A stretch of 32,174 bases of DNA, from the NCBI GenBank assembly GCA_046295675.1, contig JBKBMW010000002.1, forward strand, positions 1-32,174. Direction: 5' to 3'. The notes beneath the pieces were generated by a model, which was given only the letters and a program-made list of their open reading frames with translations, was not told where the DNA came from and searched no databases. Position numbers and translations under genes: made by a program. Every line of letters starts with the position of its first letter. Position 1 is the stretch's first letter. The DNA comes from Candidatus Anstonellaceae archaeon. Lineage in GTDB: Archaea > Micrarchaeota > Micrarchaeia > Anstonellales > Anstonellaceae. Positions 1-31,706 of this stretch are shown here, in pieces.

Positions 1-528
1 GAAAAAGATAACGTATTAAAAGAGAAGTTAGAAAAGAAAAAAGAGGAATTAATAGAGACAGAAAAACAAAACCTATTAAGAGAGGAAGCTAAAGCAAAAT
101 GGGAAGAAATTCCCTCTGATGAGAAAAAAAAGCAAATTGATGAGGTATTAAACAACCAAGAAATTAAAAACGCAATTATAGATAAATATAAAAAAGAGCA
201 AGTTTTTCCACAAGCAGAAAATGAAGTAATAGAAGCTAAATTAAGGGAAGAAAATTTCCCATTAGATAAATTCTATAAGATTGTTTATAGGAATGTAAGT
301 GAGGATAATTTAACAGAAAGTTTAAATTCAGCCTTAAATTCCATGCTGGCTGAAGCAGTGCTTCCAACACTTGGTTCCTATCTTACAGGAAAATTGGGAC
401 TTGGTCTTGTTTTTAGTAATCCGAAATGGGAAGATTATATAAACGGAGTTTTTTCCAATCCAGAAACATCATTGAGTAACACTATACAACAGTGGCAACA
501 AACAACTAAAATGACCCAAAGTAGGTGA
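1..528 (+). CDS. 3' part of a larger ORF whose 5' end lies outside the window. A Lys/Glu-rich, probably coiled-coil segment is followed by a Gly/Leu-rich hydrophobic stretch (VLPTLGSYLTGKLGLGLVF). Hypothetical protein and first visible gene of the membrane-protein gene train.
   Basis: My hand translation shows frame +1 open from base 1 (EKDNVLKEKLEKKKEELIET...) straight into the listed 343..528 ORF. TGA stop at 526-528. Only 12 nt separate it from the next same-strand gene. Confidence 0.6.
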   Translation, partial: EKDNVLKEKLEKKKEELIETEKQNLLREEAKAKWEEIPSDEKKKQIDEVLNNQEIKNAIIDKYKKEQVFPQAENEVIEAKLREENFPLDKFYKIVYRNVSEDNLTESLNSALNSMLAEAVLPTLGSYLTGKLGLGLVFSNPKWEDYINGVFSNPETSLSNTIQQWQQTTKMTQSR

Positions 529-540
529 CAAGGTGTTTAA

Positions 541-1098
541 ATGAAAGATTTTAGCAAATTTTATCAAGCTTTGGAAAAGAAAGATAATCATCTAATTAAG
601 TTTTTATTAGAAAACTACAAAAAAGAAAATTCTTCTAGATTGGAAACATGGAAAAATATTACTGTTAAGAGCCTTTCTTCATTTCAAGGTTATTTTTTTA
701 TAAAAAATCAAGGTTTATTTTTATATGGAAAAATAGTTCCAGAAATTTTTTTTGTTTTTCTTTCAATAAATCACATCCTTGAGCAAACTCTCAAAAATTT
801 AACTTCTAATTCCAAACTTGTCAAAGAAAACATAAAAAATCTAGAAAATTTAGAGTCTAGATTTGAAAAACTTTCTTTAAAATTTAGTGTTTATTATCAG
901 ACAATGAGTGCAGTGGTAGGGGCATATCATTTCTATAAAAAAAACCTTTCTTTAACTATCCATTTTTTAGATAGATTGGAAAAACAATTTAATCTAAAAA
1001 AACTAGACTTGCTTTCCATTTCAGAATTAAATTCTATTTCTATAAGATTAACCAAGCTAGCTGAGGAATACCTACAAAAAGCAAATAAAAATCAATAG
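541..1098 (+). CDS. Hypothetical 185-aa protein, mostly helical and Lys/Leu/Asn-rich, with one hydrophobic segment (GLFLYGKIVPEIFFVFLSINHIL). No family recognised.
   Basis: ATG ORF with the SD-like AAGGTG 5 nt upstream (530-535). 8-nt gap to the next gene. Long open frame in an AT-rich, stop-rich background. Confidence 0.75.
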   Translation: MKDFSKFYQALEKKDNHLIKFLLENYKKENSSRLETWKNITVKSLSSFQGYFFIKNQGLFLYGKIVPEIFFVFLSINHILEQTLKNLTSNSKLVKENIKNLENLESRFEKLSLKFSVYYQTMSAVVGAYHFYKKNLSLTIHFLDRLEKQFNLKKLDLLSISELNSISIRLTKLAEEYLQKANKNQ

Positions 1099-1106
1099 GT
1101 TTCTCT

Positions 1107-2309
1107 ATGGTGGAATTATTAACCCAATATTTTTATGTAGGAACTGCTTTAAGCTCTTTAATTGTTGCATTGACTTATATGATTGGCTCTTTGTTTTCTT
1201 CAGAGCCTTTAAAAGGCTGGGCAAGAAAGGAAATAGCTGATTTGCTTTTTATTGTTCCACTCTTTTATATTCTTGTCTTTTTTTTATCTAATTTTTCTTC
1301 TGATGACCAAATAAATATAGTATCTAACTCATTTGGGCCAGAAAGTTTTTTTTATAAGGATCTAACCAACTTTTCCACTCAACTTATTACAAATGTTTTT
1401 TATTTTTCTGCAGTTTCATCTTACAATTATAATTATCAAGTTGGTTTGTCTGTCTCGGATTTAGTACCAATATCAATCCCACAATGGTTTAATTTTGGTG
1501 GAGGATTATCCTCATCTCAATATCCTGGTTATGGTTCTAATATAATTTTAAACCAACTTTTCTTTGGGATAGATTACTGTTTTAATATACTATTTCTTCT
1601 TAATTCAATCTTCCTAATTTTTAGTTTTTTAGTTCTTATATCAATAAATTTTCTTCTTCCTTTAGGCATTTTTCTTAGAGTTTTTCCATTTACAAAAAAA
1701 GCAGGTGGATTTATTGTGGGCTATTGTTTAGCAGTTTTATTTGTGTTTCCTTTTGCAGCCCAATTGAGTGCAGGCCTATCCTCTTTGGTTTTAGAAAAAG
1801 CTAAAAAAGATGGTTTTATTTCTTCAATTCCAAATTTGGAATACTCTGATAGACCACCTATAAAAAATTTGAATGCTGAACTTATTAGGAATTACATTTT
1901 GAGTCCTTTTTACATTATCCCTACTTCTGTAATTGCTAATGCCATTGCTTCTTTACTTGCTTTTATTGGAGTACCGCCAGGTTTTTCTATTGACAACTTT
2001 TTTCAATTACTTGTTAGTGCAAGCACTCCAATTGCCCAAATAATTCAATATATTATTAATTTAGTCAAAAAGATAATTCCAATTGCTATTGGAGGAACAT
2101 ATCCTAAATATGCAAAATCCACAGCTGATATTATAAAAAGTTATTATAAGCCTATAGTCACAAATATTTTACCAACCTTAAGTTTATACTTTTTAGTAAT
2201 TCTTCTTTCTGTTATTTTTCAACTTACTCTTACAATAGTTTTAGGGAGAAATCTATCTAATTTCTTTGGCCAAGAAGGCCAGCTCTATGCACTTTACAAA
2301 ATTCTCTAA
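1107..2309 (+). CDS. Paralog P1 of a six-member polytopic membrane protein family. This is the minimal 400-aa version with no signal peptide; it starts directly at TM1.
   Basis: Contains all three family blocks: YMIGSLFSSEPLKGWARKEIADL, LPLGIFLRVFPFTKKAGGFIVGYCLAVLFVFPF, and a C-terminal TM plus tail FFGQEGQLYALYKIL. About 5 hydrophobic helices. Confidence 0.85.
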   Translation: MVELLTQYFYVGTALSSLIVALTYMIGSLFSSEPLKGWARKEIADLLFIVPLFYILVFFLSNFSSDDQINIVSNSFGPESFFYKDLTNFSTQLITNVFYFSAVSSYNYNYQVGLSVSDLVPISIPQWFNFGGGLSSSQYPGYGSNIILNQLFFGIDYCFNILFLLNSIFLIFSFLVLISINFLLPLGIFLRVFPFTKKAGGFIVGYCLAVLFVFPFAAQLSAGLSSLVLEKAKKDGFISSIPNLEYSDRPPIKNLNAELIRNYILSPFYIIPTSVIANAIASLLAFIGVPPGFSIDNFFQLLVSASTPIAQIIQYIINLVKKIIPIAIGGTYPKYAKSTADIIKSYYKPIVTNILPTLSLYFLVILLSVIFQLTLTIVLGRNLSNFFGQEGQLYALYKIL

Positions 2310-2319
2310 GGTCGAGATA

Positions 2320-3279
2320 ATGCTAAAAAATTTATTATTTTTGATTTTGTTTGCATGCATTCTTTATAGTCAATCCACTCAAAATTATGGCCCAGTGCAA
2401 TGTTTTTCTTTTTCTTTGGATGAATTGTTTAATCCAGAAGCTCAAAAATCATTTAATCTTCCTATTGTTTTTTCAATAATGATTTCTTTAGTGGTTTTGT
2501 CCTATTTTTTTGGCAATCTACTCAAAAATCCTCATCTACTTGTTTGGGCAAAAACCGAAGGAGTTAATGTTTTTTGGTCAGGGGTTTTGCTTATCTCTAT
2601 TAGTGGAGCAATTACTTTTTCTTGTACAATTGCAACCTTTTTTGTCCCAGACTTAAAAACTTCTCCGCTTTCTTATTTATCGAATTATTTAAACAATATA
2701 TTCTCATTAGGAAAAAGCTATTCAATAGATCTTTTAAAAAGTTCATTTAATGATATGTTTTCTTCTATGGAACTAAATTCACCATCTTCTATTTATTTTG
2801 GAACTTCACAATTTGGAATTTATTATCTGGCAGGAAAAAAAGAATGGGCATCATATAAAGAAACTCTTAACTCTTATTTAGTTCCAATTTTAGGAATGAT
2901 TTATGCTCAAAAATTCATAATTGAAAATTTATTTTCTCTTATAGTGCAGATAGTTCTACCAACTTCTCTATTTATAAGAATCATCCCAATTTTTAGAGAT
3001 GTAGGAGACTTTTTAATAGCAGTGTGCCTTTCAATCTATTTCTTTCTGCCAATAATCTATTTTGCCACATTTTCTTCTGTTACCAATACCTTTGGCTCGT
3101 TTTCTCCTGATGCTCTTAATTCTGTTGTTTATCTTTATGATTCTACTATAGAAAATGCTTTAACTTTTATTGCCTTTCTTACTATACTGGCAGTGTTTAT
3201 TCCAAATTTGATTTTGGTAGTGATAACCGCCTCCTCCATGGCTTTATATAAAGCTATAAAAGGATTTTTCAGTGGGTGA
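2320..3279 (+). CDS. Paralog P2 of the membrane family (about 319 aa from ATG 2320), with an N-terminal signal-like peptide MLKNLLFLILFACILYSQ.
   Basis: The track ORF 2266..3279 begins at a TTG inside P1. ATG 2320 lies 10 nt after the P1 stop and yields a signal peptide like those of P3-P6. Family blocks: YFFGNLLKNPHLLVWAKTEGVNV and LPTSLFIRIIPIFRDVGDFLIAVCLSIYFFLPI. Short tail AIKGFFSG. Confidence 0.8.
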   Translation: MLKNLLFLILFACILYSQSTQNYGPVQCFSFSLDELFNPEAQKSFNLPIVFSIMISLVVLSYFFGNLLKNPHLLVWAKTEGVNVFWSGVLLISISGAITFSCTIATFFVPDLKTSPLSYLSNYLNNIFSLGKSYSIDLLKSSFNDMFSSMELNSPSSIYFGTSQFGIYYLAGKKEWASYKETLNSYLVPILGMIYAQKFIIENLFSLIVQIVLPTSLFIRIIPIFRDVGDFLIAVCLSIYFFLPIIYFATFSSVTNTFGSFSPDALNSVVYLYDSTIENALTFIAFLTILAVFIPNLILVVITASSMALYKAIKGFFSG

Positions 3280-6200
3280 TTGGATTTGAAAAAATTAATT
3301 CTTTTAATAATTTTTTTTGGTTTATTAAATTCGCAAACAACAAAACAAAACGATATTACTAAACTTGTCGAATTTACTAAGGACCAACTCCTAAATAACC
3401 CCCCCACCTTAATTTCTTCTATTCTTAATAATTATTCTACTTTGTTGATTTTGCTTTTTGCTTTAGCTGTTTTCATTTTAGCAATTGGTTATTTTGGGGC
3501 TTCTTTTTTTGATTTAACTGAAACCAAGGTGTTTATTAAAACAGAAATCGGTCAATTAATTTTAACTGCCATATTTGCAGGTTCTTTATTTGGAATAATA
3601 ATTTTTGTAGATAGACTTATAATTTCAAGTGCAGATTTTTTGGTTTCACCATGCGGGGAAAATTATGTTTATGCTCAAAACATTCCAATACCTATTCAAT
3701 ATGCAAATTGTTATCTAGATTCTTTAATCAAATTGGCTGACAAGGCATTGGAAGAAAATATAAAAGAATCAATAGAAGCTGGGAGGGAGACCTATAAACA
3801 AGTAGGTTATCAAGTTTCTGTTTCTCCTCTTTCAGGTTATTATTCCTTCAGACCTGCTGCATTTAAAAGGTTAGATGTGGAGATAAAAACTGCAGAGTCA
3901 CATTTTTTATCCTCTTTCTTAATCAGCCTAATATCTCAAAAAGCCTTTTTGAATTATATAGCACCAGTCTTTGGAATATTTTTATTATTTATTGGTTTAT
4001 TATTTAGAATTTTGTTTTTTACAAGAAAGCTTGGGGGTTTATTAATAGCAGCAGGTTTTGGTTTGCTTTTGATCTGGCCTCTAACCTACATGATCTCCTG
4101 GTTTACCTTTCGAGCAGGAATATTTGGTTCTCAAAACTTAGGAGAAGAAAGTGCTTTTTGTCCCAAAGAATGCCAAATCCCAGTTCCTGTTGCTTACAAT
4201 TTTTTAGCTAATCCAAAAGGAGAGTACAAACCAGAGACTATGCTTACTCTTGAGGAAGTAGCAGCAATTTTAAAAGAAAAACCAGAGAATAAAAATCAAT
4301 TTGAATTTTTAATTGAAAAGGGAATTCAGCCTTGTTTTGTTACTGATAGTGATAAAACTAAAAAATTTGGAATAATTAGTGTAAATGATTCAGAAAATTG
4401 TGATGAATCTTGCAGAGAAATTCCTTTAAATCTTCAAGTTTGCAAGGAACAAGAAAAACATTGCGATGCTCTTCCATTAGCCTGTAAAATAATCAGGTCT
4501 ATGGGACTGGAAAACTATACCTCATATTATCAAAAAAATTCTCAATATTGCTCTAACAAAAGTGTTTGTTCCAATTGCCCAGATTCTTGTAAATACCAAT
4601 TAAGGGAAATTCGTTATTCTTCTGATCCTTCCTTTATTCCAAAAGATCCAACCGGTGTTGGGATCATTCCCAGAACAGATTTAAAAAATACTATAAATTG
4701 TAGTTCCAAATGTGAAAAATGCCCTCCAGTTTGTAGATATTATTCCAAAAAAAACGATGGAACTTTTTTCTTTTTAAATAAGGATAGTGCAGAGTGTAAA
4801 AATTGTGATGATTGTTTTAACTATAAAGAACCTTCCACCCAACTCCCTATTTGTATGACTTATGTTCCTTTGATTTCAGTAGGAAACTGCCAACAGCTTT
4901 GTGGAATACCTTACTCTATAAGAAATGCCCCAAATAACAATATCTGCCCAATTGATTGCAGAATATATTTTGATAGCACTACTGATAAATATAAAGACCC
5001 AGTTTTTAGTTCTTTTTGTGAAAAAAATGGTGAATTTTTTGAAGCTTGCAACCGCTGTCCTATAGAGTGCAAAATAAATGCATCTGAAGTAATAAATCAA
5101 ATAGCAAAACAACAAAATCCCTCTTGCTCTCTCCCCCCTACTTTTTCTAATGGTCAGATGGATAATTCAATAAATAAGAATTGTGCAAGATGTGACCCAT
5201 CCTGTAGATTTTCAAATCCTTCTTCTATTGCATCTGCTCAAATTAAGAGCAGCTCAGGAGTTGATATAAACAATATAGAAAGTTATATTCCTATTTTTTC
5301 TGAATTTTATGCAAAAACTTTTGTTCAACAAAACTGTAGTTATAGTTCATCACCTTATGTTGAGTGTCCTACAGAGAGGAATGGTAATATATACACTGAT
5401 TGTAACTGGAAAGAAGGATCAGATTCATCTAAAACACTTCCAACCTATTCTCCAGCTAAGATAATTTATCCAACTACAGGGGATAATCCATTCTGCCCGG
5501 ATTTTATTGCCAAATTGCAAAATTTTGTTTTATTATCGTCTGATGAAAACAACCACATTATTGTAAAAGCAAATCAGTACCTTTCACATCTTTGTACTTT
5601 AGATAAAGATAGTGAAAAGTTTTGTTCTTCGCCTTATTGTCCTTCATCCTGCTATTATAACTCCTGGCCAAATTTTGCAGCTTTAGAAAATATCTCAAAT
5701 ATCACTTCAAAAATAAATTTTGCTCTGTCCAATTGCAATTTTAATGAAACACAAAAAGGCTGCTATTATTACAATTATCTCAATATGGTAGTTTTGAATT
5801 ATTCTGGACAATATTACTTGCCCAAATCAGCTGTTCAAAGCTGTTTCCCTTCTATTTCTTCAATAAGCTCTGATCTTTCTAACTTTGCCTGTTATCCAAT
5901 TTTAAAAATTCCTTCTGCTTCAGACTTTTCTTATTGTGGTAATTATATTGATTATTCAAATCCTAACAGGTCCATGATAAAAGGCTCAGCATGCCCATAT
6001 GAATGCAGATATGATGAATTAAAGAAGCAAAAAAATCCACAAATATGTGGTGATTTTACTCTCTCATTTACTTCTTCCAATCCCTCTCATAATTGTGAGC
6101 CATTCTGTAATGGTTTAATTAGATCATCAGATCTATCCTATTGCAACTCAGAAGCATATTCATGTACCCAACAACAAGCTCAAACCTATTGGGTAAGAAT

Positions 6201-7338
6201 TAATTCCATTCCAATCAATAAATCCCATAGCAACCGATTATGTAATCAATCTGTAGTTTTATATAATTCATCAATCACTTATAAAAAAGGAGATCTAGAT
6301 CGAAATAATCAACCATATGCTAAAGATTGGTGGGAAGACAGCTGTACCTATATAGAAAACGGTGAAACCAAATATATAAACTTCACTTTGGTAAGTGGCT
6401 ATTCTCCCTACCTTTGTTCTGCTGGGCATAAATATATAGGATTGGATGAACTAATTTCTTCTAGTGGTTATTCTCAATATAGAGAATGCGGCGAGATTGA
6501 TACTAACAAAAATCCTAACTATATTTTTTGCGGAAATTATAGTATAAATGTTGGGGGAACAAAAGCAGTTATAAAAGCATTAGATGATTTATGTTATGCT
6601 TCCTACAATGCTAGGGCAATGCCTGGATTAGCTTATCATTCTATTGGAGGAAACGGAGATTTCTCAACTAAAGTTAATGGTCAAATAAAGCAAAATATTC
6701 AATACTTTGATAATTGTCAACAATGCCCAGTGGTATTTAGAATCAAAAATTTGCAAGATGCTTATCTTTTGGGAATTCCTGGGATATTAACAAATCTTCT
6801 TAATTGTCAAAAGTGCAATATAAAAATAAACCCTCCCTATTCGTCTTCTTGTGAATTCAAATACGAGAAAGCCATTGGTTGCCCATTAAGATGCAGAATT
6901 GCAACTTTAGATGGAAGTCTTCCTTATGGCTGTGATCCAGATATAGATGATCAAAAAGAAAAAAGTTATGTTAATCCAGAAGTCGGATATGCTTGCGATG
7001 ATTATCATGCTTTAAGTTGCAGGATAAATTTAAGGGAGGATTTATGTGATGGTTGCAGTGAATTTTGTGAATCAGATTGTCAATCACTTCCTTATATAAG
7101 AAGAGATTGTTCTAGCTGTAATCCTGCTGCAAGTTTTGGTGCAAATTCCTTATTAGATGCTACTACCTCTCAAGCAGGTCTTGTTACCCAACCAGGTTGG
7201 ATAAGAATTGGCTTATTACTAATACCTTCTATAATTTTACCTTCATTTTCAATAGTAATTTTAGTATCATTTATAAAAGGTCTATCTCAATTCTTAGGAG
7301 GCGATATAGAAATACCTGGTTTGTATAAGTTGATTTAG
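3280..7338 (+). CDS. Paralog P3 (1352 aa). The family core carries a ~1000-aa cysteine-rich extracytoplasmic insertion between the fourth and the last TM helix.
   Basis: No ATG is available, so the start is TTG at 3280 (as in the track) or TTG at 3286, which sits 6 nt after GGTGA (3275-3279). Signal-like N-terminus (MDL)KKLILLIIFFGLLNSQ. Blocks: YFGASFFDLTETKVFIKTEIGQL and FIGLLFRILFFTRKLGGLLIAAGFGLLLIWPL. C-terminal TM plus tail LSQFLGGDIEIPGLYKLI. About 76 Cys by hand count. Confidence 0.85.
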   Translation: MDLKKLILLIIFFGLLNSQTTKQNDITKLVEFTKDQLLNNPPTLISSILNNYSTLLILLFALAVFILAIGYFGASFFDLTETKVFIKTEIGQLILTAIFAGSLFGIIIFVDRLIISSADFLVSPCGENYVYAQNIPIPIQYANCYLDSLIKLADKALEENIKESIEAGRETYKQVGYQVSVSPLSGYYSFRPAAFKRLDVEIKTAESHFLSSFLISLISQKAFLNYIAPVFGIFLLFIGLLFRILFFTRKLGGLLIAAGFGLLLIWPLTYMISWFTFRAGIFGSQNLGEESAFCPKECQIPVPVAYNFLANPKGEYKPETMLTLEEVAAILKEKPENKNQFEFLIEKGIQPCFVTDSDKTKKFGIISVNDSENCDESCREIPLNLQVCKEQEKHCDALPLACKIIRSMGLENYTSYYQKNSQYCSNKSVCSNCPDSCKYQLREIRYSSDPSFIPKDPTGVGIIPRTDLKNTINCSSKCEKCPPVCRYYSKKNDGTFFFLNKDSAECKNCDDCFNYKEPSTQLPICMTYVPLISVGNCQQLCGIPYSIRNAPNNNICPIDCRIYFDSTTDKYKDPVFSSFCEKNGEFFEACNRCPIECKINASEVINQIAKQQNPSCSLPPTFSNGQMDNSINKNCARCDPSCRFSNPSSIASAQIKSSSGVDINNIESYIPIFSEFYAKTFVQQNCSYSSSPYVECPTERNGNIYTDCNWKEGSDSSKTLPTYSPAKIIYPTTGDNPFCPDFIAKLQNFVLLSSDENNHIIVKANQYLSHLCTLDKDSEKFCSSPYCPSSCYYNSWPNFAALENISNITSKINFALSNCNFNETQKGCYYYNYLNMVVLNYSGQYYLPKSAVQSCFPSISSISSDLSNFACYPILKIPSASDFSYCGNYIDYSNPNRSMIKGSACPYECRYDELKKQKNPQICGDFTLSFTSSNPSHNCEPFCNGLIRSSDLSYCNSEAYSCTQQQAQTYWVRINSIPINKSHSNRLCNQSVVLYNSSITYKKGDLDRNNQPYAKDWWEDSCTYIENGETKYINFTLVSGYSPYLCSAGHKYIGLDELISSSGYSQYRECGEIDTNKNPNYIFCGNYSINVGGTKAVIKALDDLCYASYNARAMPGLAYHSIGGNGDFSTKVNGQIKQNIQYFDNCQQCPVVFRIKNLQDAYLLGIPGILTNLLNCQKCNIKINPPYSSSCEFKYEKAIGCPLRCRIATLDGSLPYGCDPDIDDQKEKSYVNPEVGYACDDYHALSCRINLREDLCDGCSEFCESDCQSLPYIRRDCSSCNPAASFGANSLLDATTSQAGLVTQPGWIRIGLLLIPSIILPSFSIVILVSFIKGLSQFLGGDIEIPGLYKLI

Positions 7339-8463
7339 ATGAAAAAAATTTCTTTTATATTTCTCATTTTTGTTTTTAGTTTCGGAATAATTTTTGCCCA
7401 ATCTCAACAAGATTCTTGCTTACCTAAGTCCATTAATTTGGCTCTTGGAATAAGCATCGGAATAATTTCTCTTCTTTTTTTGTTCGGATATTTATTTAAT
7501 TTTGAACAATTAAAATTCCTAGCAAAAAAAGAATTTGGTGAATTGTTTTTAGTTGTATTTTTTCTTTTATCTCTCTCTTTTTTCCATTTGTCCTTTTCTG
7601 AGCAATTAGCCAAAATATTTAACTTTGATTCAAATGGTTGGAGTGACAGATTAAATTATAAAAACTGGGGTACAGACAAGCAAAACAACCCAGTATTAAA
7701 AGTTACAAAGAATATTTTAGAAAACCTAGATTCATCTAAACTAACAATTCAGCAAAAAGCTTTTATTTTAATAGAAGAAAATAAACAACTTCTTGAAATT
7801 TTAACCATCAAGACAATAAATTTTGGAAATTCTATTTCAACTGAATCTTCAAAAATGAGCTATATAAATTTTCTTGGTCTTGGTTTTGGATATTCTCTTT
7901 GTTCTACTTATTCTGTTTTTAGAGGACCTGTAGGTTTACTTTTAAACGCTGAGGCTACTGCTTCCATTGCATTATTTTTTAGTGCATTTTTTAATTCAGT
8001 TTTTCAATCTTATCTATTATGCTATCTTCTTCCTATCGGAATATTTCTAAGGCTTTTGAGCTTTACAAAAAAAGCAGGGTCTTTATTAATTGCTCTTTCT
8101 ATCTCATTTTATTTTGTTTTTCCAACTGCAATTGTGGTATTTAATGACCTCTATAACTATTATTACATGAAGCTTTCTTTACAAACATCTAAAGATTCCA
8201 TCATTGTGCAGCAATATAACAATTTAAATTCATATTTCTCTCTTCCTGTTGACTGTGATATAAATGACCAAGATATGAATAAGACTGTTTCAAATATCAT
8301 GAAGACTTTACTAAAAAATCTAAAAGAAATTTTGCTTTTTATCATTTTAAAATGCATATTTATTTTATTATTTTCTCTTTCATTCACCCTAGTATTTGCT
8401 TCTTATCTTGCCCATTTCTTGGGATTGGATATAGATTTATCAACTTTGGCACGGTTGAGTTAA
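7339..8463 (+). CDS. Paralog P4 of the membrane family (374 aa), with signal-like N-terminus MKKISFIFLIFVFSFGIIFAQ.
   Basis: The ATG directly abuts the P3 TAG stop. Blocks: FGYLFNFEQLKFLAKKEFGEL and LPIGIFLRLLSFTKKAGSLLIALSISFYFVFPT. Tail LAHFLGLDIDLSTLARLS. Confidence 0.85.
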   Translation: MKKISFIFLIFVFSFGIIFAQSQQDSCLPKSINLALGISIGIISLLFLFGYLFNFEQLKFLAKKEFGELFLVVFFLLSLSFFHLSFSEQLAKIFNFDSNGWSDRLNYKNWGTDKQNNPVLKVTKNILENLDSSKLTIQQKAFILIEENKQLLEILTIKTINFGNSISTESSKMSYINFLGLGFGYSLCSTYSVFRGPVGLLLNAEATASIALFFSAFFNSVFQSYLLCYLLPIGIFLRLLSFTKKAGSLLIALSISFYFVFPTAIVVFNDLYNYYYMKLSLQTSKDSIIVQQYNNLNSYFSLPVDCDINDQDMNKTVSNIMKTLLKNLKEILLFIILKCIFILLFSLSFTLVFASYLAHFLGLDIDLSTLARLS

Positions 8464-8464
8464 T

Positions 8465-11400
8465 ATGAATAAATGGTTTTTATTATTTGCATTCTTTTGG
8501 ATCGGACTGCTATTCTCTCAGTTTCCTCCACCACCTCCAAATGTACTTTTTGAAGTTTATGATAGCCCAGTGATTGACCCTTCTAATCCTCCTCAAAGAA
8601 CTACTGAAATCACAAAATTAAAACCATTTTTTCCATATTTAATCTTAGACTGTCCTCTTTATAATGAGGGTGAGAGTGATTGTATTTTTACTATCAATTT
8701 AGTCAATTTTACTTGCCACTATCCAGATCCTGATGGTATTCCTATTGATACTGTTCATACCCTGACTTTTGCTAATCCAATTGTAGTTGCAAACGGAGAG
8801 AGAGTTTTTTTTTCTTTTGACCCTTCTAATCCCTCTAATCCCCTTTATTCTTTTTGGATAACGCATCCCTCCCCTATTCCTCCTAACACCAAGTCTGCAG
8901 CTGTTTGTTCTAGCAAAAAATATGCAAATTTTTCTTATATAATAGAGGCAAGAAGAGCTGGATTGCCAAGCTCTATTTTTGAAAAATCCAATTTAGTTAA
9001 TATATTTCATCACCCTCCAGAAATAAGCTTTCCCTTTACATCCACCCCTCTTTGTAATTTAAAATTTTCTGTAAGTGATTTGGATGAGAGTTATGGTAAT
9101 AGCGTTTATATAAAAATTACATTATCAAATTCCACAAATAGTTGCAACTTTATATACAATCCAGGAAGTGGTATAGGTTACTTCCCACCCAAAGAGAAAG
9201 ATAATTGCGATCCTTTTGAGTTTTCTGCCCGTGAAATGGTTTTGAATCCTTCTCCTCCACCTATAAATACAACCTTTATTTTACATCTAAAGGCAACTTA
9301 CTCTCCTTATAATATTACTGTATTCCCTCACAATAGCTATAGTTATACTCTAAATAATTATAAAAAATATTTTATGGTTAATGGCCCTCCATATGAACTA
9401 ATCAATTTTTTTTGCAATAGGGTAAGCAAAAACTATGACCTTTTTGGTTCAGCACATGTTTTTTCAAATAAAATAGAAATTGAAGCAAATGCAACTACTT
9501 CTAGGATAAACTTTAATAATCACTTTTTTAAAAATCTAACAATAGAAGTCTTGAATGACCAAGGTAGCACTATAAATAGTTATAATTTTTCCTGGGTATG
9601 TGATAGTGGTGTATGTAGCTCTGCTCAATTTGATTATTCAACAAATGCTAGGAATTTAATAATAGACCAAAAGACATTTACTCCAATCCAAAATTCTTTT
9701 AATAGCACTCTTACTTTAGACACCTCTCGACTCTGTCCACAAGGGGATAAAAATAAGCTTAAAATAAAATTATTTGGTTATGGGTTTGATTGGGAGAATA
9801 AAGAATTGTTATTATATAACGGAAAGTGTGCTGGAACCCCGCATTTGGACGCAGTTATTTATTCATCACCCTCACAAAAAGGTGATATAATAGTACTATC
9901 TGATTTTACTCAAAGAGAAGATAATTTCAAATATATTATTGTTGAGCTAAAACAGCTAACAAATATTCAAAAACCACCAACTTTAGAAATAAAATACAAA
10001 ACCCATAATGATGCAATTGTTCGTTCAAAGGTTTCATCGATATCTTCTGCTAAATCTATTAAAATTTCTTATGATATAAATTGGATAAATGTCAGTATAA
10101 TCTCACCAAATGTACCTGTAATATATAAAGAATTTACTTTTCCTCTACCTCCCCCAATTGAAGTATTAGAGAGATGGAAAATAGATGACCAATTAATAAA
10201 TGAGGAACAAAAAGATGATATACTTAAAAATAAGCGTATTTATGTAGGAGAGAAAGATAAAGCTTTGGTAAATTTAGTGTTTAAAGTACCATATAATATA
10301 GACGGATATAATTTTGATCAATATTTATCTCCATATTTAGAAGGTGATTGTAGTTCTAGCTCAGTTAAATCAGGAAACGAGTATTTTGTCAATATTGATC
10401 TAAAAAAAGGTGCCTGCATATATAAAATAAGGGGAAAGTCACAAACACAACAAAATCAAAACCCATCTTTAAGTAAATTTTTAACTTATATAATATATTC
10501 TAAGAACTTTTTTGTCCCAAATAAGCCACAATCCTTTTGTGATTCCACACAACTTTTAAGCAGTACTTACTATAAGTTCTTTGCTGTTGCTCTTGCCTCT
10601 TTGATCCTAATAATTGGAATTGGATACATGGTTGGTTCTTTTCTCTCCCATCCTGCTTTGCTTGAATGGTCAAAAAGAGAAATTTTAGAGGTAATTTTGT
10701 TAGGAATTTTCATTTCTTTAGTTCCACAATTTTTATTATTTTCTTGTTCTGAAAAAATATCTATAGGTTCATTTCTTAACCTATTTCCATTAAAAAATAC
10801 AGTAGTTGAAAAAGGAGCCTCCTTATTAGAATTTGTTCAAAAAATTATGTTAGATTTAATAGAAAGGTCACACACTGTCATAACTATTTTAAGAAGAGAT
10901 ATATCCTATTTTCAAATACTTGCCTCTTATTATCATTTTAATTCGAGTTTCGTATCTGACATTGTTAGTTTTCTTGGTGTTGGTTTTAGCACAGGTTTTA
11001 ATGAAAATCCTTATTCAGGTTTATATCTACAAATATCTGTATTTAACTTTTTATTGCAACTAAATAACGCCTATTTATTTAGTGCCTTAACACATTACTT
11101 TATTCTTTTCTTTTTATCTTCTTCTACAGGAATGATTGTTCTTTTGTTTCCATTTGGATTTTTGTTTAGGTGTTTACCTTTTATAAAAAATGTTGGTTCT
11201 GTTCTTATTGCAATAGGTCTTGGATTTTATATCTTATTTCCAGCAGCTTATGTAATATATGGATTAATACTTTCTAACGATCATTTCAAGTATTCAACTT
11301 TCTGTGCTATTTTTCCACAAGATTCTCATTGCCAAGATTGTAATATTTATCAACTCTCTTTTTCGGAAAATCCAAAGTGCAATCTTATTTATACTAATGG

Positions 11401-11722
11401 TTGGGAAGATTTCAAAGACAAGAAATTGAATTATCAAAAAGATTTAGAAGAAGTTGGTAGTTTTTCAAAAAATACTTTTCCAGATCAAGACTCAATAACA
11501 AAAATTCAAAAAAATAAAGCATCATTGCAACCAGTATATCCATTATCACAAGATAGTTTTGATCCAGATTTAACAAAATACTTTAGTTTAACTGCTCTTA
11601 ATTTTATTTTAGTCCTGTTTATCCCATCTGTGATATTACTAATTACACTTTCATTTGTTAGAGATATTGCCTCGATTTTGGGAGGTGACATTGATGTCTC
11701 AAGGCTTATGTATCTGGCTTAA
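8465..11722 (+). CDS. Paralog P5 (1085 aa). A signal peptide and a ~690-aa Pro-rich, beta-strand-like ectodomain are fused in front of the family core.
   Basis: ATG lies 1 nt after the P4 stop. N-terminus MNKWFLLFAFFWIGLLFSQFPPPPP. The core starts near nt 10570. Blocks: YMVGSFLSHPALLEWSKREILEV and FPFGFLFRCLPFIKNVGSVLIAIGLGFYILFPA. Tail IASILGGDIDVSRLMYLA. Confidence 0.85.
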   Translation: MNKWFLLFAFFWIGLLFSQFPPPPPNVLFEVYDSPVIDPSNPPQRTTEITKLKPFFPYLILDCPLYNEGESDCIFTINLVNFTCHYPDPDGIPIDTVHTLTFANPIVVANGERVFFSFDPSNPSNPLYSFWITHPSPIPPNTKSAAVCSSKKYANFSYIIEARRAGLPSSIFEKSNLVNIFHHPPEISFPFTSTPLCNLKFSVSDLDESYGNSVYIKITLSNSTNSCNFIYNPGSGIGYFPPKEKDNCDPFEFSAREMVLNPSPPPINTTFILHLKATYSPYNITVFPHNSYSYTLNNYKKYFMVNGPPYELINFFCNRVSKNYDLFGSAHVFSNKIEIEANATTSRINFNNHFFKNLTIEVLNDQGSTINSYNFSWVCDSGVCSSAQFDYSTNARNLIIDQKTFTPIQNSFNSTLTLDTSRLCPQGDKNKLKIKLFGYGFDWENKELLLYNGKCAGTPHLDAVIYSSPSQKGDIIVLSDFTQREDNFKYIIVELKQLTNIQKPPTLEIKYKTHNDAIVRSKVSSISSAKSIKISYDINWINVSIISPNVPVIYKEFTFPLPPPIEVLERWKIDDQLINEEQKDDILKNKRIYVGEKDKALVNLVFKVPYNIDGYNFDQYLSPYLEGDCSSSSVKSGNEYFVNIDLKKGACIYKIRGKSQTQQNQNPSLSKFLTYIIYSKNFFVPNKPQSFCDSTQLLSSTYYKFFAVALASLILIIGIGYMVGSFLSHPALLEWSKREILEVILLGIFISLVPQFLLFSCSEKISIGSFLNLFPLKNTVVEKGASLLEFVQKIMLDLIERSHTVITILRRDISYFQILASYYHFNSSFVSDIVSFLGVGFSTGFNENPYSGLYLQISVFNFLLQLNNAYLFSALTHYFILFFLSSSTGMIVLLFPFGFLFRCLPFIKNVGSVLIAIGLGFYILFPAAYVIYGLILSNDHFKYSTFCAIFPQDSHCQDCNIYQLSFSENPKCNLIYTNGWEDFKDKKLNYQKDLEEVGSFSKNTFPDQDSITKIQKNKASLQPVYPLSQDSFDPDLTKYFSLTALNFILVLFIPSVILLITLSFVRDIASILGGDIDVSRLMYLA
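11681..11688 (+). promoter_or_regulatory. Shine-Dalgarno GGAGGTGA for P6, embedded in the P5 coding sequence.
   Basis: Complementary to the conserved archaeal 16S 3' end. 5-nt spacing to ATG 11694. The same bases encode the Gly-Gly-Asp of the P5 tail. Confidence 0.6.
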
Positions 11723-12824
11723 AAAATCTTATTTGTTTTTATTTTTTGCATTGTTATTTTCTATGGTCTTTTCCCAAGATTGGGGAAGTGCAAAAAGTGC
11801 AAATATTCAACCTACAGATTTTAAGTTATTTAATATTCCTTGGAAATCTACCTCAAATCAAGAAATTTCTTGGTTGAGCATTGCTTCAATAGTTATCTTA
11901 ATTTGTTTTTTAGCAAATACGATCTTATTTATGCTTGGAAAAGCATTTGAGTTAGATAATATAAAAAAATTTGCTATTTCAGAATTTTTTCAAACCACTG
12001 CTACAGCACTTATGATTGTTTTTTTTCTCTCTGGTATCACAGCTGCTTTTGATTTAATTCAAAAATATTTTCTCCCTTCTGGTTCATCTGTTTCTTGCAA
12101 TGGAAACATCATCGGTATTTGGGATAATAATTCTGGACCATTTACAATTATCAAATGTAAAATTTCAGAATATCTTTCTACTGCTTACTCCCTATTTAAT
12201 GCTACTTATATTGCTAATATTGATAAAGAAGTTGAAGGTTCGCAGTGTTATGGAACTTCTGGATTTACTGAATGCAAAATCTGGAATTCAGATCTTTATA
12301 GAGAAGTTGAAACTTATCACTATATTGCAAACAGGTTGACAAATGTTTCTATCTCTTTAGTTGCCCAGTATTTCTTTATAGATTATTTGCAAAATAATCT
12401 TTTATCTTTCTTTTTACCTGTTGGCCTGTTGCTTAGACTTTTTCCTCCTTTAAGAGGAATTGGAAGTTTGTTTATTGCTATAGTTATTGGTTTTTATTTT
12501 ATTTTTCCATTAACCTATCTTTTTATAGAACCTTCTATTAAAATAGAAGAACAAAAAGTCCAGAAGCCAAACTTAGCAAAAAATGTTTGTTTTTCAAAAT
12601 TTAGCCCTTTTGTTTCCACTTCACTTTTGCAACCAGAACCTCCATCTACTACTGGTTTACAATTCTCTTCAGATATAGGGCAGTTCATTGTAGAAATTAC
12701 ATTAGGCACATTTTTTTATCCATTCCTTTCTCTTGTAATAACTGTCATCTTTATAAATTTCTTAGCAGGATTTTTATCAGCAGACAGTGGTATGTTGATT
12801 CATTTCATAGCAAAGAATCTATGA
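11694..12824 (+). CDS. Paralog P6 of the membrane family (about 376 aa from ATG 11694).
   Basis: The track ORF starts at TTG 11655. ATG 11694 is preceded by the strong SD GGAGGTGA (11681-11688) and gives the signal-like MSQGLCIWLKKSYLFLFFALLFSMVFSQ. It overlaps the P5 3' end by 29 nt. Blocks: FMLGKAFELDNIKKFAISEFFQT and LPVGLLLRLFPPLRGIGSLFIAIVIGFYFIFPL. Tail LAGFLSADSGMLIHFIAKNL. Confidence 0.8.
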   Translation: MSQGLCIWLKKSYLFLFFALLFSMVFSQDWGSAKSANIQPTDFKLFNIPWKSTSNQEISWLSIASIVILICFLANTILFMLGKAFELDNIKKFAISEFFQTTATALMIVFFLSGITAAFDLIQKYFLPSGSSVSCNGNIIGIWDNNSGPFTIIKCKISEYLSTAYSLFNATYIANIDKEVEGSQCYGTSGFTECKIWNSDLYREVETYHYIANRLTNVSISLVAQYFFIDYLQNNLLSFFLPVGLLLRLFPPLRGIGSLFIAIVIGFYFIFPLTYLFIEPSIKIEEQKVQKPNLAKNVCFSKFSPFVSTSLLQPEPPSTTGLQFSSDIGQFIVEITLGTFFYPFLSLVITVIFINFLAGFLSADSGMLIHFIAKNL

Positions 12825-12834
12825 GTTGGGGGAT

Positions 12835-15800
12835 ATGAGAGTTTTATTTATAATTCTATTATCATTTGCTTTATTTTTTTTGGTTGGTTGTACTCTCAAT
12901 CCAAATAAAAATATTGTTAGTGGAGGTTGTTGCTATCAATCAGATACATTTTATACTTGCGAAAAATCATCAAATCCAGTAGCAAACACTCAAGATCTTT
13001 ATTCTTTAACAAATTGCGGAGTTTATAAATCAAAGGAATGTAGTTTTTTTAATTCTACTTCAGGGGAAATTTTAGATGCAAATAAAGATGTAATAAAAGA
13101 TGATGATGGTAATCCAATCCAACCAAATATGTGCTCTAAAAACTGCAATTTTGATAAAGCAAATTGTACAAATCAAGATGAGAAAAACACTTGTTACTCT
13201 CTAACTAATCCAAAAACAACTTACCCTATTTGTGTAAATAATTCTATAGTTTTATGTATTCAAAATCAATGTAAGGTATGGATGTGTGGTGAAAAAAAAC
13301 CAACAGTAAAAAGAGAGTACTCTTTTTCAACATCAGACCAAGAAACTTTAAAAAATAATTATAAATCTCAAAGTGGAAAAAAAACAATCTTTGATGTTCA
13401 ACGCGGTTTAGTTGGAAAAATATGTGAATTTAGATTTATGAATGCTTCCTCCTACAGGTTGCTTAGTGAACAAAAGTGGCTTGTCAATAGTATACGCCTT
13501 GGCATCCTTGGTTCATTTTCAGATTATGAAATTGCAAAATACTATTTTCCACCTTCAGATGCTTTTTGTAGCTCTGCATTTAACAAAAACGCAGTAGTAG
13601 AGAGCTTTATAAGGTATCTTATTTATTCTCCATCTACTTCTTCTTTTTCTCCTATTACAAAAGATTCATTTTGTTTTGATGATGGTACAAACTATATATG
13701 CAAAAATGATCCATCTATTGCCTTTCCAAAATCTGCTGAATTCTCTCATTTACTTTGCACTTCTTTTTGTTCAAGGTTGTTTAGCTGCCCATTAAGGAAT
13801 TTAAATTTTGCTACTGTTGATGTTTCCCCGCCCTCTACCTCTCAAACAAATCCAATAATTCATTACTTTTTAAATATATCCTCTTACTATTCCAATCTCC
13901 TTAAACTTTATCCAGATACCCAAAATTATTATAGAAAAGAAGGAGAAAAAGGAATAGGTCCAGAAGGTGCAAAAGCTTTTGAATGCATTTCTGATTCTGA
14001 TTGTTTTTCTAATACTTGCAGAAAGGATGTGTACTTTCGAGGCAGATGTTTTGATAACTCAAATAATGCTGTTGATTGTAATTGCACTTTAGTAAGTTCT
14101 TGTTCAGAAGCTTTTAAATGTGATAAATTCCCTCAAGATTCAATAGATGAGGCAGAGTGTAAAGCAGGCAAATTTTTATGTGAGCAAAATTCAATTAACG
14201 ATGAATTAATAGTTATGTGTAAATACTCTCCAACCACTTATGACCTTTATGCTTATGCTGATTTGGATAAATTATACCTCTATAAATTAGGTCAAAGTAA
14301 TGCTGTTTCTGTAATAGGACCAAATAGTTGGGATGGGACTTGGGGGGTTTATGATTTTTCAGAGTTTAATAAATATAAACATATGGAAGATGGCAATAAA
14401 CAACAGCTGGAATTTTCCAATATTGTAAGAAAAGTCGTGGAATTTGGTTGCCTAAACACTGACAAAAAAATAATAGAACAACCAAAATGTAATCCAGGTT
14501 ACTCCTTTAGCCCAATTAAAAAAACCTGTTTAGACTCAAATGGAAAGACCTCTTCTCCTTTTTGCACCAGTCCTTCACAAGGGCCACAAGAATGGGTGGT
14601 TTGGAAGGATAATGCTGAACACCTTTGGTATAAAATTAATGAGAAGACTTCTCAAGATAAAAAAAATGATGTTATCCGCTGGCAATGGGGCTATACATTT
14701 TTTGTAGTTCCAACCAATTTTGTAGTTTCTTCCACTCTGTCTTCTGCATCAAACAAGCAACTTTATATTATAACCTCCAGAAGTGTTTCCTTCAATGATT
14801 TGAAAAGAAAATTTTCATTTATTGACAAATGTGATTTAACTCATACTAACAAAATAGATGAGTTTGGAGGAGATTATGATATACTTGAAATCTCTATCAA
14901 AGATATTCCTTTACAAAAGCATTATTTAATAGAGCAATATATTACTCCTTTAACTTCTCACCCATATCTATTAGCAGGTGGAAACAAATTAGATTTTGGA
15001 GAGCAAGAAAAAAAAGCCCAATACTTATTTGATAAAACATGGATAATAAAAAGTTTTGGAAAATGCCAAAAAGATAATGATGATTTGCTTAAAACAAAAT
15101 CTTATGGTTTATGTAATAGCTGTGGAACCTTCCTCACTCTTGCTTATCAAAATGTAAGCAAAACCCAAACATCCTATTGTCCAAAAGATTGCGGTTTATC
15201 TGGGTCTCTTCTCTGTTTCTGTCCCTCCTCCCTTTATAATTTTTTTAACACAAAAACAATTGCTGGAGGGATGGCTGGAATCTCAGGTAATGTTTTTCTT
15301 CCAAATATCACCAATGCCTCTCCATCTACTATCCCTGAATTTTCTTATTTAATAAATAAAATCCATGCTTATCTAGAAAATAATGTGATTCCTGTTCTAG
15401 ATTTAAAAGAATATGCAAAAGATGGAATCTCTGTAGGAGGGAAAGAACAGGTTAGTTTTGATTATTCTAATCAGTTTTTAATGGCACCTCATTGTGAACA
15501 AAAAAAATACGATTGTACTTGTACCAGATACTCTGATTCAGATGGTTCTTGTATAGAGGGAAATTGTAGTTGCGATATTGCTCTTCCTCCAGATGCTTTG
15601 TTTTTATTTTTAAACAAAGATCACAGCCCAGTACTCTCTATTTTGGATACTCTTTCTTCCTCTACTGCCCAATCTAAAATAAATAATGCCAAATCGCTTT
15701 GTCCAAATTGCCAAGTAGGTCTGGAATATGAAAATATTCTTAATATCGATTCTGCAACTAATATAACAGAGTTTTATCAGTCTTCAGGACTAAATTCTAC

Positions 15801-16842
15801 TATAAAAGCATTTTTTGGAGTAGAACTTCAAGCACAAGAAAATTTAGGTTATCCTCCTCCCTCTCCCAATCCAGAATTAATTAATAACAAAAAAGTAGAT
15901 TTTTTGGTCTTAAATATCAAGTTCAGTGAGCAAAACAAAGACAATTACATAAAGGCAATTGAAAATGCTTACCAACTTTCAAAATATGTTTTATACCATG
16001 TAGGAAAACCAACCTTATGGAAACTAAGATTTGATGGGAAATTTGTTGATAGTCCTTATTCTAACCCTGTATTTTTAGATACTTTATTTGTTTCTCAACA
16101 AAATCTCACTCTTTCAGGAGTAGTTGGGATTTTACTTCCTTCCTTATTAGAAAAGCCAGAAAATGTTTTAGAAAACTTAGAAGTAGATAAGCAGGGGGAT
16201 AGTCAAAGCCAGTCATTTTGTTCTTTAGTAAATGGATCTTTAAATATATTACAACTTTCTTTTTACAACGAAGTAAAAAAACTTCAAGCACAAGATCAAG
16301 CTTGCAACCAGGCGGCATGTTCAGAGTGTTCTCCTTTAATTAAAGACGATCCAGAGGTATGTAATCCAAAATGTTTAGATGGAACTGCTTGTAGCAATGG
16401 TTTTAAGTGTTTACAAAACTGTATATCAAAAACTTACTGTCAAGCAAATAAATGCGAAGATAAATTTAATAATAAAAAAATCACCTGTTATTATATGCCT
16501 TCAAGTTCAAAATATTTTACTTATCTAAACAAACTAAATATTAATACTTTAGAGGAACTATTTGGAAATCCAGATATGCCTGAGATTATAGCTTCATTAA
16601 ATGAACCATGCTGTCTAAACATAACTACTGAAAGGTCTGAAAGTTATTATACCTATATTTCATCTATTGGAATTGATTATAGCTCTTCTAATGCTATTTA
16701 TCCATTTTTTGGTTCTAATGATACCAATTGCGGGCAATTTGAGCAACCTCAAGAGCAAGACCCATTAACCTGTAGTCCAACTGATTTACCAAGCTATACC
16801 CTTTCTAAGAAACTATACTATTGTTTTTGGGAAAATAAATAG
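12835..16842 (+). CDS. P7: giant (about 1335 aa) cysteine-rich secreted or lipid-anchored protein. It lacks the P1-P6 core and is the last gene of the train.
   Basis: ATG 12835 is in frame with track start TTG 12826. N-terminus MRVLFIILLSFALFFLVGC has a hydrophobic h-region ending in a lipobox-like LVGC. I see no further TM helix. About 69 Cys by hand count, with dense clusters such as ACNQAACSECSPLIKDDPEVCNPKCLDGTACSNGFKCLQNCISKTYCQANKC. Many N-x-S/T sequons. Confidence 0.8.
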   Translation: MRVLFIILLSFALFFLVGCTLNPNKNIVSGGCCYQSDTFYTCEKSSNPVANTQDLYSLTNCGVYKSKECSFFNSTSGEILDANKDVIKDDDGNPIQPNMCSKNCNFDKANCTNQDEKNTCYSLTNPKTTYPICVNNSIVLCIQNQCKVWMCGEKKPTVKREYSFSTSDQETLKNNYKSQSGKKTIFDVQRGLVGKICEFRFMNASSYRLLSEQKWLVNSIRLGILGSFSDYEIAKYYFPPSDAFCSSAFNKNAVVESFIRYLIYSPSTSSFSPITKDSFCFDDGTNYICKNDPSIAFPKSAEFSHLLCTSFCSRLFSCPLRNLNFATVDVSPPSTSQTNPIIHYFLNISSYYSNLLKLYPDTQNYYRKEGEKGIGPEGAKAFECISDSDCFSNTCRKDVYFRGRCFDNSNNAVDCNCTLVSSCSEAFKCDKFPQDSIDEAECKAGKFLCEQNSINDELIVMCKYSPTTYDLYAYADLDKLYLYKLGQSNAVSVIGPNSWDGTWGVYDFSEFNKYKHMEDGNKQQLEFSNIVRKVVEFGCLNTDKKIIEQPKCNPGYSFSPIKKTCLDSNGKTSSPFCTSPSQGPQEWVVWKDNAEHLWYKINEKTSQDKKNDVIRWQWGYTFFVVPTNFVVSSTLSSASNKQLYIITSRSVSFNDLKRKFSFIDKCDLTHTNKIDEFGGDYDILEISIKDIPLQKHYLIEQYITPLTSHPYLLAGGNKLDFGEQEKKAQYLFDKTWIIKSFGKCQKDNDDLLKTKSYGLCNSCGTFLTLAYQNVSKTQTSYCPKDCGLSGSLLCFCPSSLYNFFNTKTIAGGMAGISGNVFLPNITNASPSTIPEFSYLINKIHAYLENNVIPVLDLKEYAKDGISVGGKEQVSFDYSNQFLMAPHCEQKKYDCTCTRYSDSDGSCIEGNCSCDIALPPDALFLFLNKDHSPVLSILDTLSSSTAQSKINNAKSLCPNCQVGLEYENILNIDSATNITEFYQSSGLNSTIKAFFGVELQAQENLGYPPPSPNPELINNKKVDFLVLNIKFSEQNKDNYIKAIENAYQLSKYVLYHVGKPTLWKLRFDGKFVDSPYSNPVFLDTLFVSQQNLTLSGVVGILLPSLLEKPENVLENLEVDKQGDSQSQSFCSLVNGSLNILQLSFYNEVKKLQAQDQACNQAACSECSPLIKDDPEVCNPKCLDGTACSNGFKCLQNCISKTYCQANKCEDKFNNKKITCYYMPSSSKYFTYLNKLNINTLEELFGNPDMPEIIASLNEPCCLNITTERSESYYTYISSIGIDYSSSNAIYPFFGSNDTNCGQFEQPQEQDPLTCSPTDLPSYTLSKKLYYCFWENK

Positions 16843-31344: not shown

Positions 31345-31352
31345 TTTATCCC

Positions 31353-31706
31353 TCAAGAATTTATAAATTCATAGGCTTTTTTTTCCATATGTCTTTGCAT
31401 CATTAACTCTACAACCCTTATTAAATTTTCAATCATTTTTTCATCTTTCTTTTGTCCCATTAGGTTATAAAACTGAGCGTATACCTCCAATGCCTTTTTT
31501 TTCAATTCATTTGCAAGAGCATAATCCTTCTTTTCAACAGCTTCATTTATTCTTATAAAAAATTCTCTTAACTCCTCCATTTTTTCTTGCACTTTTTGAG
31601 GTAAAGATGAAAAACCGCTTCCATATACTTGGCCATATACTTCGCTTAAACAATTTGTTTGACATGTTTTACAATTAATTTTTTCTGCAGTATTAAAAAC
31701 TTTCAT
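31353..31706 (-). CDS. Hypothetical 117-aa helical protein with an N-terminal CxxCxxxC motif (CKTCQTNC).
   Basis: ATG ORF with GAGAGGG upstream on the minus strand. Its stop is 8 nt before the ATG of the following Lys/Glu-rich gene, so the two look like an operon pair. Confidence 0.7.
   Translation of the reverse strand: MKVFNTAEKINCKTCQTNCLSEVYGQVYGSGFSSLPQKVQEKMEELREFFIRINEAVEKKDYALANELKKKALEVYAQFYNLMGQKKDEKMIENLIRVVELMMQRHMEKKAYEFINS

Follow-up and report, generated by a model that had tools for sequence, protein, structure and literature searches.

A giant cysteine-rich lipobox protein encoded with six paralogous membrane proteins in Micrarchaeota

What is the place, with respect to the cell, of a giant cysteine-rich protein that is encoded directly behind a run of membrane-protein genes in Micrarchaeota? 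The question is raised by a 32,174-nucleotide stretch of DNA from a Candidatus Anstonellaceae archaeon (contig JBKBMW010000002.1, positions 1 to 32,174; hereafter, the window), in which the gene P7 (12835-16842, + strand) follows six paralogous membrane-protein genes, P1-P6. An earlier note had described P7 as a putative lipoprotein of 1335 aa with about 69 Cys that lacks the core of the P family, and had taken it for a distal or shed component. The description stands, i.e., the open reading frame (ORF) has this length, the Cys count is 69, and the hidden Markov model (HMM) of the P1-P6 core gives no match to P7 at E ≤ 10, so that P7 falls outside the P-core family. As for its place, P7 probably sits, on balance, outside the cytoplasm and tethered to the membrane, as one subunit of a cell-surface complex that is encoded by seven genes and specific to Micrarchaeota.

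The P7 ORF is intact and runs from the ATG at 12835 to the TAG at 16840-16842 (1335 codons, ~148 kDa). An alternative, longer call in the ORF listing reaches upstream to a TTG at 12826; the ATG is preferred because of the N-termini of the homologs and the GGGGG run at 12828-12832. Between this ATG and the P6 stop codon (12822-12824) lies a spacer of 10 nt with the G-rich run GGGGGA (12828..12833, + strand), which may serve as a Shine-Dalgarno-like element. The N-terminus of the protein, MRVLFIILLSFALFFLVGC, was confirmed as its sole hydrophobic segment, in line with the earlier reading of a lipobox L-V-G-C without any further hydrophobic helix: the only 19-residue window with a Kyte-Doolittle mean above 1.6 falls within residues 1-21. 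A charged n-region is followed by a hydrophobic h-region and then by the lipobox (M-R-VLFIILLSFALFF-L-V-G-C19), giving a Sec-type signal peptide at 12835..12891 (+ strand) with Cys19 at position +1.

This arrangement is kept across the family. G18 and C19 are invariant among the close homologs, an xGC lipobox was found by regular expression in 121 of 151 family members (the remainder being mostly fragments or near-variants, e.g., LYGC and FMGC, so that the motif is present in almost every member of full length), a "CC" pair lies 6-14 residues past the lipobox Cys family-wide, and a second hydrophobic segment is absent in 150 of the 151. The signal peptides of P2-P6 (window 2320-12824) instead end in [S/A]-Q (YSQ, NSQ, FAQ, FSQ and FSQ, respectively), which suggests cleavage by signal peptidase I to leave a putative N-terminal Gln, and P1 begins directly with a transmembrane helix. 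P7 alone in the operon has a lipobox and would therefore be processed differently from its partners. Lipid attachment at Cys19 is accordingly predicted from the motif. It might be objected that the N-terminus is not a lipoprotein signal at all, and that signal peptidase I cleavage or a retained signal anchor leaves Cys19 as just another disulfide Cys, since Cys19 adjoins a Cys-rich module and the window contains neither aliA nor aliB. However, most family members fit the canonical lipobox at positions -3 to +1, the partners in the same operon carry the [S/A]-Q type of signal instead, and removal of Cys19 from mature P7 leaves an even number of Cys, 68, all of which make this objection distinctly unlikely to hold.

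Cysteine makes up 5.2% of P7 and 5.6% of P3, compared with 0.8-1.9% of the cytoplasmic proteins encoded in the window; the median over the 151 family members is 4.5%. In an alignment of 67 family members, about 40 Cys positions reach at least 88% conservation, and the pattern is thus not due to chance. The Cys-cluster peptides quoted in the earlier note were all found where it had placed them (aa 30-45, 100-121, 382-432 and 1156-1220, the last being nt 16300-16494). The last of these had been called an EGF-like knot with 13 Cys; its location is correct, whereas the count is 11 Cys in 65 aa, and no EGF-family Pfam model matches P7 at E ≤ 1.

The link between P7 and the membrane proteins comes from gene order. 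P1-P6 (1107..12824, + strand) are six tightly packed paralogous genes for polytopic proteins with about five transmembrane helices each, recognised by the core HMM with E values of 1e-70 to 1e-124. Their signature is a core of five transmembrane helices with a LPxGxxLRxxPFT[KR]KxG...FxFP motif and a C-terminal LGxD[IV][DE]...L tail, and they have no match in Pfam, NCBIfam, PHROGs or the PDB. For this hydrophobic family, a word-indexed search was swamped by hydrophobic words and missed even close orthologs. By HMM, 12 distinct loci with DNA were tested (the window, L001/2/6, L003/4, L005/12, L007-L011 and L013-L015), and in 12 of 12 the P7 homolog stands immediately 3' of P-core genes that run without a break and keep the same order, with six such genes upstream wherever the flank is long enough. 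Two further loci without DNA show the same arrangement, as judged by gene-size pattern only. Co-occurrence of P7 homologs with P1-P6 had been proposed in the earlier note as a test of its partnership, and it was positive in every locus examined (12 by HMM and 2 by gene-size pattern); the partnership is thus strongly supported by synteny.

The paralogs are moreover orthologous by position. Those at positions 2-6 best match P2-P6 in nearly every locus, position 1 is the most diverged, and characteristic insertions, e.g., the large ectodomain of P3 between transmembrane helices 4 and 5, are kept across loci (L006-L011, L013). Both the duplications that gave six paralogs and the order of the genes are therefore older than the radiation of the family, which implies that P1-P6 may form a fixed, ancient hetero-oligomer. 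Genes outside the module vary between loci and are of the housekeeping type (PolD, UPF0147, TBP, L21e, ScpB, ArgRS). Most plausibly, the P1-P7 complex belongs to the core of this episymbiotic phylum and is inherited vertically, rather than being a mobile or accessory trait. A phage or mobile-element origin of P7 was rejected given the absence of a PHROG match, the chromosomal housekeeping neighbours and the synteny across the phylum.

P7 had been called the terminal gene, and this holds in Anstonellaceae-like lineages, where it is the last gene of the module. In more distant Micrarchaeota, however, P7 is followed by the gene for another giant secreted protein, which we call P8 (L007 14124-21533; L008 15631-18723; L009 14938-19236; L010 13731-17135). 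The P8 proteins have 1030-3102 aa, low Cys content and no lipobox; one copy has Beta_helix/NosD repeats, and the copies are weakly homologous to one another. P8 is absent from the window. No relation of P8 to P7, P3 or P5 was found by HMM or phmmer, and a fusion of P8 into the enlarged P5 or P3 of this lineage was rejected for lack of similarity by the same two methods.

How far the P7 family extends depends strongly on the search. Word-indexed searches with P7 and with a 6-sequence profile returned five relatives of 27-48% identity, of which the only one with a taxonomic name is a Candidatus Anstonellaceae archaeon (Archaea; Nanobdellati; Microcaldota, i.e., Micrarchaeota; Micrarchaeia). The impression of a small family was overturned by an exhaustive HMM profile search of 1.84 billion representatives, in which 211 clusters reached E ≤ 1e-3 and 81 reached E ≤ 1e-30, with lengths of 1150-1850 aa in nearly every case; for this Cys-rich, fast-evolving family, the word-indexed search thus gave 6 clusters vs. 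211. Three conserved blocks are common to the family, at P7 aa ~187-445, ~715-855 and ~1015-1300. The relatives that were looked up and bear taxonomic names are all Micrarchaeota, Micrarchaeia or Anstonellaceae, with one exception, L015 (Ga0180301_10004223, also RLG25807.1), which was deposited as "Methanosarcinales archaeon". This 11-kb contig of 36% GC carries a P-core array of the Micrarchaeota type together with a P7 homolog that has a FLAGC lipobox, and it is probably a mis-binned contig in a Methanosarcinales metagenome-assembled genome.

Outside its own family, P7 has no match in Pfam, NCBIfam or PHROGs. When PDB sequences were searched with profiles built from 6 and from 34 sequences, the results were empty or trivial, and 34 diverse relatives scanned singly against Pfam showed no shared family. 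BLASTP of P7 against P3 and against P5 gave nothing significant, and P7 as a duplicate of either was rejected on this basis; six CPxxC[RK] motifs occur in P3 and zero in P7, in agreement with the earlier statement that the two giants are not simple duplicates. We found no prior description of the gene cluster in the literature. By every sequence and structure test run, P7 and the seven-gene module are outside known families; we regard them as new in kind, although their function may prove conventional.

Does the predicted structure reveal an enzyme? An AlphaFold model from 6 sequences was poor, with a predicted local distance difference test score (pLDDT) of 53, and served only as an independent check of a TIM-barrel trend. 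With 67 family members, P7 aa 136-1335 gave a mean pLDDT of 81.2 and a predicted template modelling score (pTM) of 0.81, with five short low-confidence loops. A pTM of this height across 1200 residues suggests a single compact body, as opposed to a chain of separate domains. Foldseek found no match in the PDB at E ≤ 1e-3 with either model, and a search of viral structures (BFVD) gave nothing significant. The weak top Foldseek matches of both models (E 2e-3 to 6e-2, the best being 2.4e-3 and 6.7e-3) are almost all (beta/alpha)8 enzymes, led by glycoside hydrolase (GH) family 1 glucosidases and including GH5, GH51, GH53 and GH99.

These matches are a ground for regarding P7 as a free-standing, lipid-anchored carbohydrate-active enzyme, i.e., a glycoside hydrolase or lyase with a highly decorated TIM barrel, which would trim glycans of the envelope or host surface and whose linkage to P1-P6 would be only regulatory or operonic. 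At least six consecutive beta-alpha units at aa 834-1101 (15334..16137, + strand; assigned from model secondary structure and the weak Foldseek matches) may form a TIM-barrel-like core, for which clan GH-A (GH1, GH5, GH53) is the best, though weak, structural neighbour in two independent models. The best, non-significant, viral neighbours are a depolymerase and a glycosyl hydrolase, and the only suggestive Pfam match among the 34 relatives is a single, marginal one to Glyco_hydro_53 (E = 0.079). However, the structural matches have template modelling scores of at most 0.37 and root-mean-square deviations of ~10 Å or more, no GH model of Pfam or NCBIfam matches P7 significantly, and the PDB profile searches are empty. 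Unlike clan GH-A, which has its acid/base at the end of beta4 and its nucleophile at the end of beta7, the P7 family has no conserved catalytic Glu pair at these strand ends; no Glu reaches 80% conservation in aa 834-1101, where the only conserved acidic residues are D856 and D1022. The barrel, if real, would also sit within ~900 residues of Cys-rich and beta-rich decorations, which again is unlike clan GH-A. According to the earlier note, a known enzyme class, confidently assigned, would refute its proposal, and no such assignment was obtained for P7. We regard the free-standing enzyme as unlikely, and that the TIM-like core binds or cleaves glycans is no more than a hypothesis.

The remaining regions of P7 are arranged along the gene as follows, all on the + strand. 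The N-terminal Cys-rich module (aa 20-153, 12892..13293), defined from the sequence and the homolog alignment, holds 13 Cys, including the family-wide "CC". The most conserved block (aa 187-265, 13393..13629), defined from profile stretch 2-260 and the family alignment, contains N218, R221, G223, P239, D242, D256/R257 (E/S in this P7) and Y261. From the alignment and Cys count, a mid-region disulfide knot (FEC...C, aa 382-462, 13978..14220) was assigned with 11 Cys, nearly all invariant family-wide; it is followed by a poorly conserved loop (aa 472-508, 14248..14358) with pLDDT below 50 in the deep-alignment model. The beta-rich middle region (aa 509-807, 14359..15255; model and family alignment) includes the conserved motif G-x-C...YG-x-C-x-x-C-x-T-x-x-T-L-A-x-Q at aa 742-772. 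Beyond the barrel-like region come the C-terminal disulfide knot (aa 1156-1220, 16300..16494; sequence and alignment), i.e., the 65-aa segment discussed above, and a C-terminal beta domain (16495..16842, including the stop codon; model and alignment) with conserved KCCL, YTY and FP..G....DCG motifs. Polar residues conserved across the family are N218, R221, D242, D256, R257, Y261, E383, R402, D856 and D1022. In the model, the N-terminal conserved block may supply the missing barrel strands, and the conserved residues may line one pocket.

The compact model also bears on whether P7 leaves the cell or is exposed at a distance from the membrane, with the platform merely holding it, as the words "distal or shed" had implied. 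P7 has no transmembrane helix beyond its signal peptide, and in this lineage its gene closes the train, both of which count in favour of such a role. However, the lipobox Cys conserved family-wide predicts an N-terminal lipid tether, no long stalk or linker follows it, and the lipobox-less P8 giant of other Micrarchaeota is a better distal candidate. The conserved Cys and the compact single-body model (pTM 0.81) argue against the earlier assignment and in favour of a tethered, membrane-proximal P7; a shed or distal P7 is, in our judgement, very unlikely.

Among known systems, a resemblance is offered by the P1-P6 platform, not by P7. Type IV secretion systems of Rickettsiales have several tandem VirB6-like polytopic paralogs with large extracytoplasmic extensions, and VirB6 is reported to have an N-out, five-transmembrane-helix, C-in topology. 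P1-P6 are likewise tandem polytopic paralogs with large extracytoplasmic extensions, and a similar topology is predicted for the P core. However, the TrbL/VirB6 Pfam family has no match in 23 P-core members at E ≤ 1, and the module lacks VirB4, VirD4 and VirB11 genes, an ATPase being nearby only at L009. This DUF87/AAA_10 (HerA/VirB4-like) ATPase lies at L009 20029-21534, two genes past P8, in that one locus; its link to secretion or translocation is possible but unsupported.

The same membrane platform invites comparison with a transporter. P7 would then be the substrate-capturing lipoprotein of a channel built by P1-P6, similar to the lipid-anchored binding proteins of archaeal and Gram-positive ATP-binding cassette (ABC) systems, and would serve to take up host lipids, glycans or metabolites that a reduced genome cannot make. 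A lipobox protein is indeed encoded alongside ~30 transmembrane helices' worth of membrane proteins, and a lineage of obligate symbionts has kept the module across the whole phylum. However, none of the seven genes has a Pfam family of ATPases, permeases or binding proteins, the HerA/VirB4-like ATPase is near the module in one locus only, and P7 at 148 kDa far exceeds known binding proteins. A transporter of this type is improbable.

P7 itself is best compared with archaeal lipoproteins. Archaeal Sec-type lipoproteins with the canonical lipobox, [L/V/I]-3 [A/S/T/V/I]-2 [G/A/S]-1 C+1, are AliA/AliB-dependent in the Haloferax volcanii model (PMC12462473); predictions make this class common in DPANN, where AliA (arCOG02177) is reported "with some gaps" (PMC12462473). 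Like Sec-type lipobox lipoproteins, P7 has an n- and an h-region followed by the lipobox and is predicted on the outer face of the cytoplasmic membrane. Unlike the known members, which are mostly solute-binding or redox proteins of 30-70 kDa, it has ~148 kDa, ~34 potential disulfides and an orphan fold. The Micrarchaeota S-layer protein SLP_Mh (Micr_00292) is likewise large, secreted and located at the surface, and comes from this phylum too; its published description (~101 kDa, almost no sulfur-containing residues, S-layer domain homology; 10.1101/2021.04.28.441871) sets it apart from P7, with its 5.2% Cys, 148 kDa and no S-layer Pfam domain. P7 as an S-layer protein was thus rejected on composition. 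A cryo-electron tomography study of a Micrarchaeota co-culture makes no mention of the P7 cluster (PMC11329633).

Returning to the tethered subunit of a surface complex, the following sequence of events can be proposed. P7 would be exported unfolded through Sec, a route that we infer because its signal peptide lacks a twin-arginine motif. The signal peptide would be removed at the conserved lipobox, and Cys19 would be lipid-modified by an archaeal enzyme of the AliA type, the motif being present and the chemistry presumed. The remaining 68 Cys could form up to 34 disulfides, which would lock a compact 148-kDa multi-domain body around the putative TIM-barrel-like alpha/beta core, the fold of the body being confidently predicted. 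On the outer face of the membrane, this body would dock to the ectodomains and loops of the six anciently diverged, order-conserved paralogs with five transmembrane helices; P1-P6 would form a hetero-oligomeric platform, a contact suggested by the strict synteny. The cluster N218/R221/D242/D256/R257/Y261 would be the likeliest ligand-binding site; the ligand, speculatively, would be a glycan or some other molecule of the envelope or host surface.

Several points weigh against this reading. Membership of one operon is not in itself proof of a stoichiometric complex, and the 32-kb window has no AliA gene for the predicted lipidation of Cys19. N-glycosylation sequons occur in P7 at chance level (16 observed vs. 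16.7 ± 3.7 expected from shuffling), and heavy N-glycosylation of P7 was rejected on this count. At the proposed binding site, aa 256-257 of the window P7 (13600-13605) are E-S, whereas 65 of 67 relatives, including its closest homologs, have D-R (VDRY(M)NY motif). Either a change peculiar to this lineage or a sequence error could account for E256/S257, and the putative binding site may therefore be altered here. Lastly, the most plausible class of roles for the complex, i.e., envelope organisation, host contact or uptake, is a function that we infer in its entirety.

The surroundings of the module in the window, an archaeal contig of 30% GC, are as follows. The + strand gene train spans 541-16842, with junctions of 0 to 10 nt or overlapping. 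It begins with P0 (541-1098), which encodes 185 aa with no Cys and no above-threshold Pfam match; P0 lies directly 5' of P1 here and in an Anstonellaceae metagenome-assembled genome (196 aa there), and not so in distant lineages. Upstream of P0, window 1-528 contains the last 175 codons of a Lys/Glu-rich ORF that is truncated where the contig ends; upstream of the P0 of L006 (1567-3684), a 502-aa membrane protein is encoded, whose similarity to this fragment is not evident. On the 3' side, the P7 stop is followed by a T-rich spacer and then by the separate gene UPF0147, two subunits of DNA polymerase D, and HAD, GlmS, IGPS-like, GDE, PTH2 and NurA genes. Farther on, a 441-aa ORF (30031-31356, - strand) in a stretch of 22% GC is extremely Lys/Glu-rich and of low complexity, has a CxxC...CC patch near aa 74-86, and has no Pfam match.

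What would such a module mean for the organism? Micrarchaeota are obligate, genome-reduced episymbionts that hold on to and exploit their hosts. The six-paralog array and the giant lipobox protein form a single-locus, vertically inherited unit that is present throughout the sampled diversity of the phylum and has no detectable relative of known function. A bolder picture, which is possible though doubtful, is that the six order-locked paralogs assemble into a pseudo-hexameric ring in the membrane, with the lipid-anchored, disulfide-locked P7 as its cap and, in most lineages, a further giant secreted protein as an extension, the whole being an unrecognised, phylum-defining machine for host contact or for uptake from the host. 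If lipidated, P7 would far exceed all other predicted archaeal lipoproteins in size and would be useful as a substrate in studies of the newly found AliA pathway outside haloarchaea. P7 is relevant to archaeal cell biology and to DPANN symbiosis, and in the cultured Ca. Micrarchaeum harzensis and Microcaldus ARM-1 the P1-P7 module offers a concrete candidate, open to testing, for an envelope or host-interface complex that defines the lineage.

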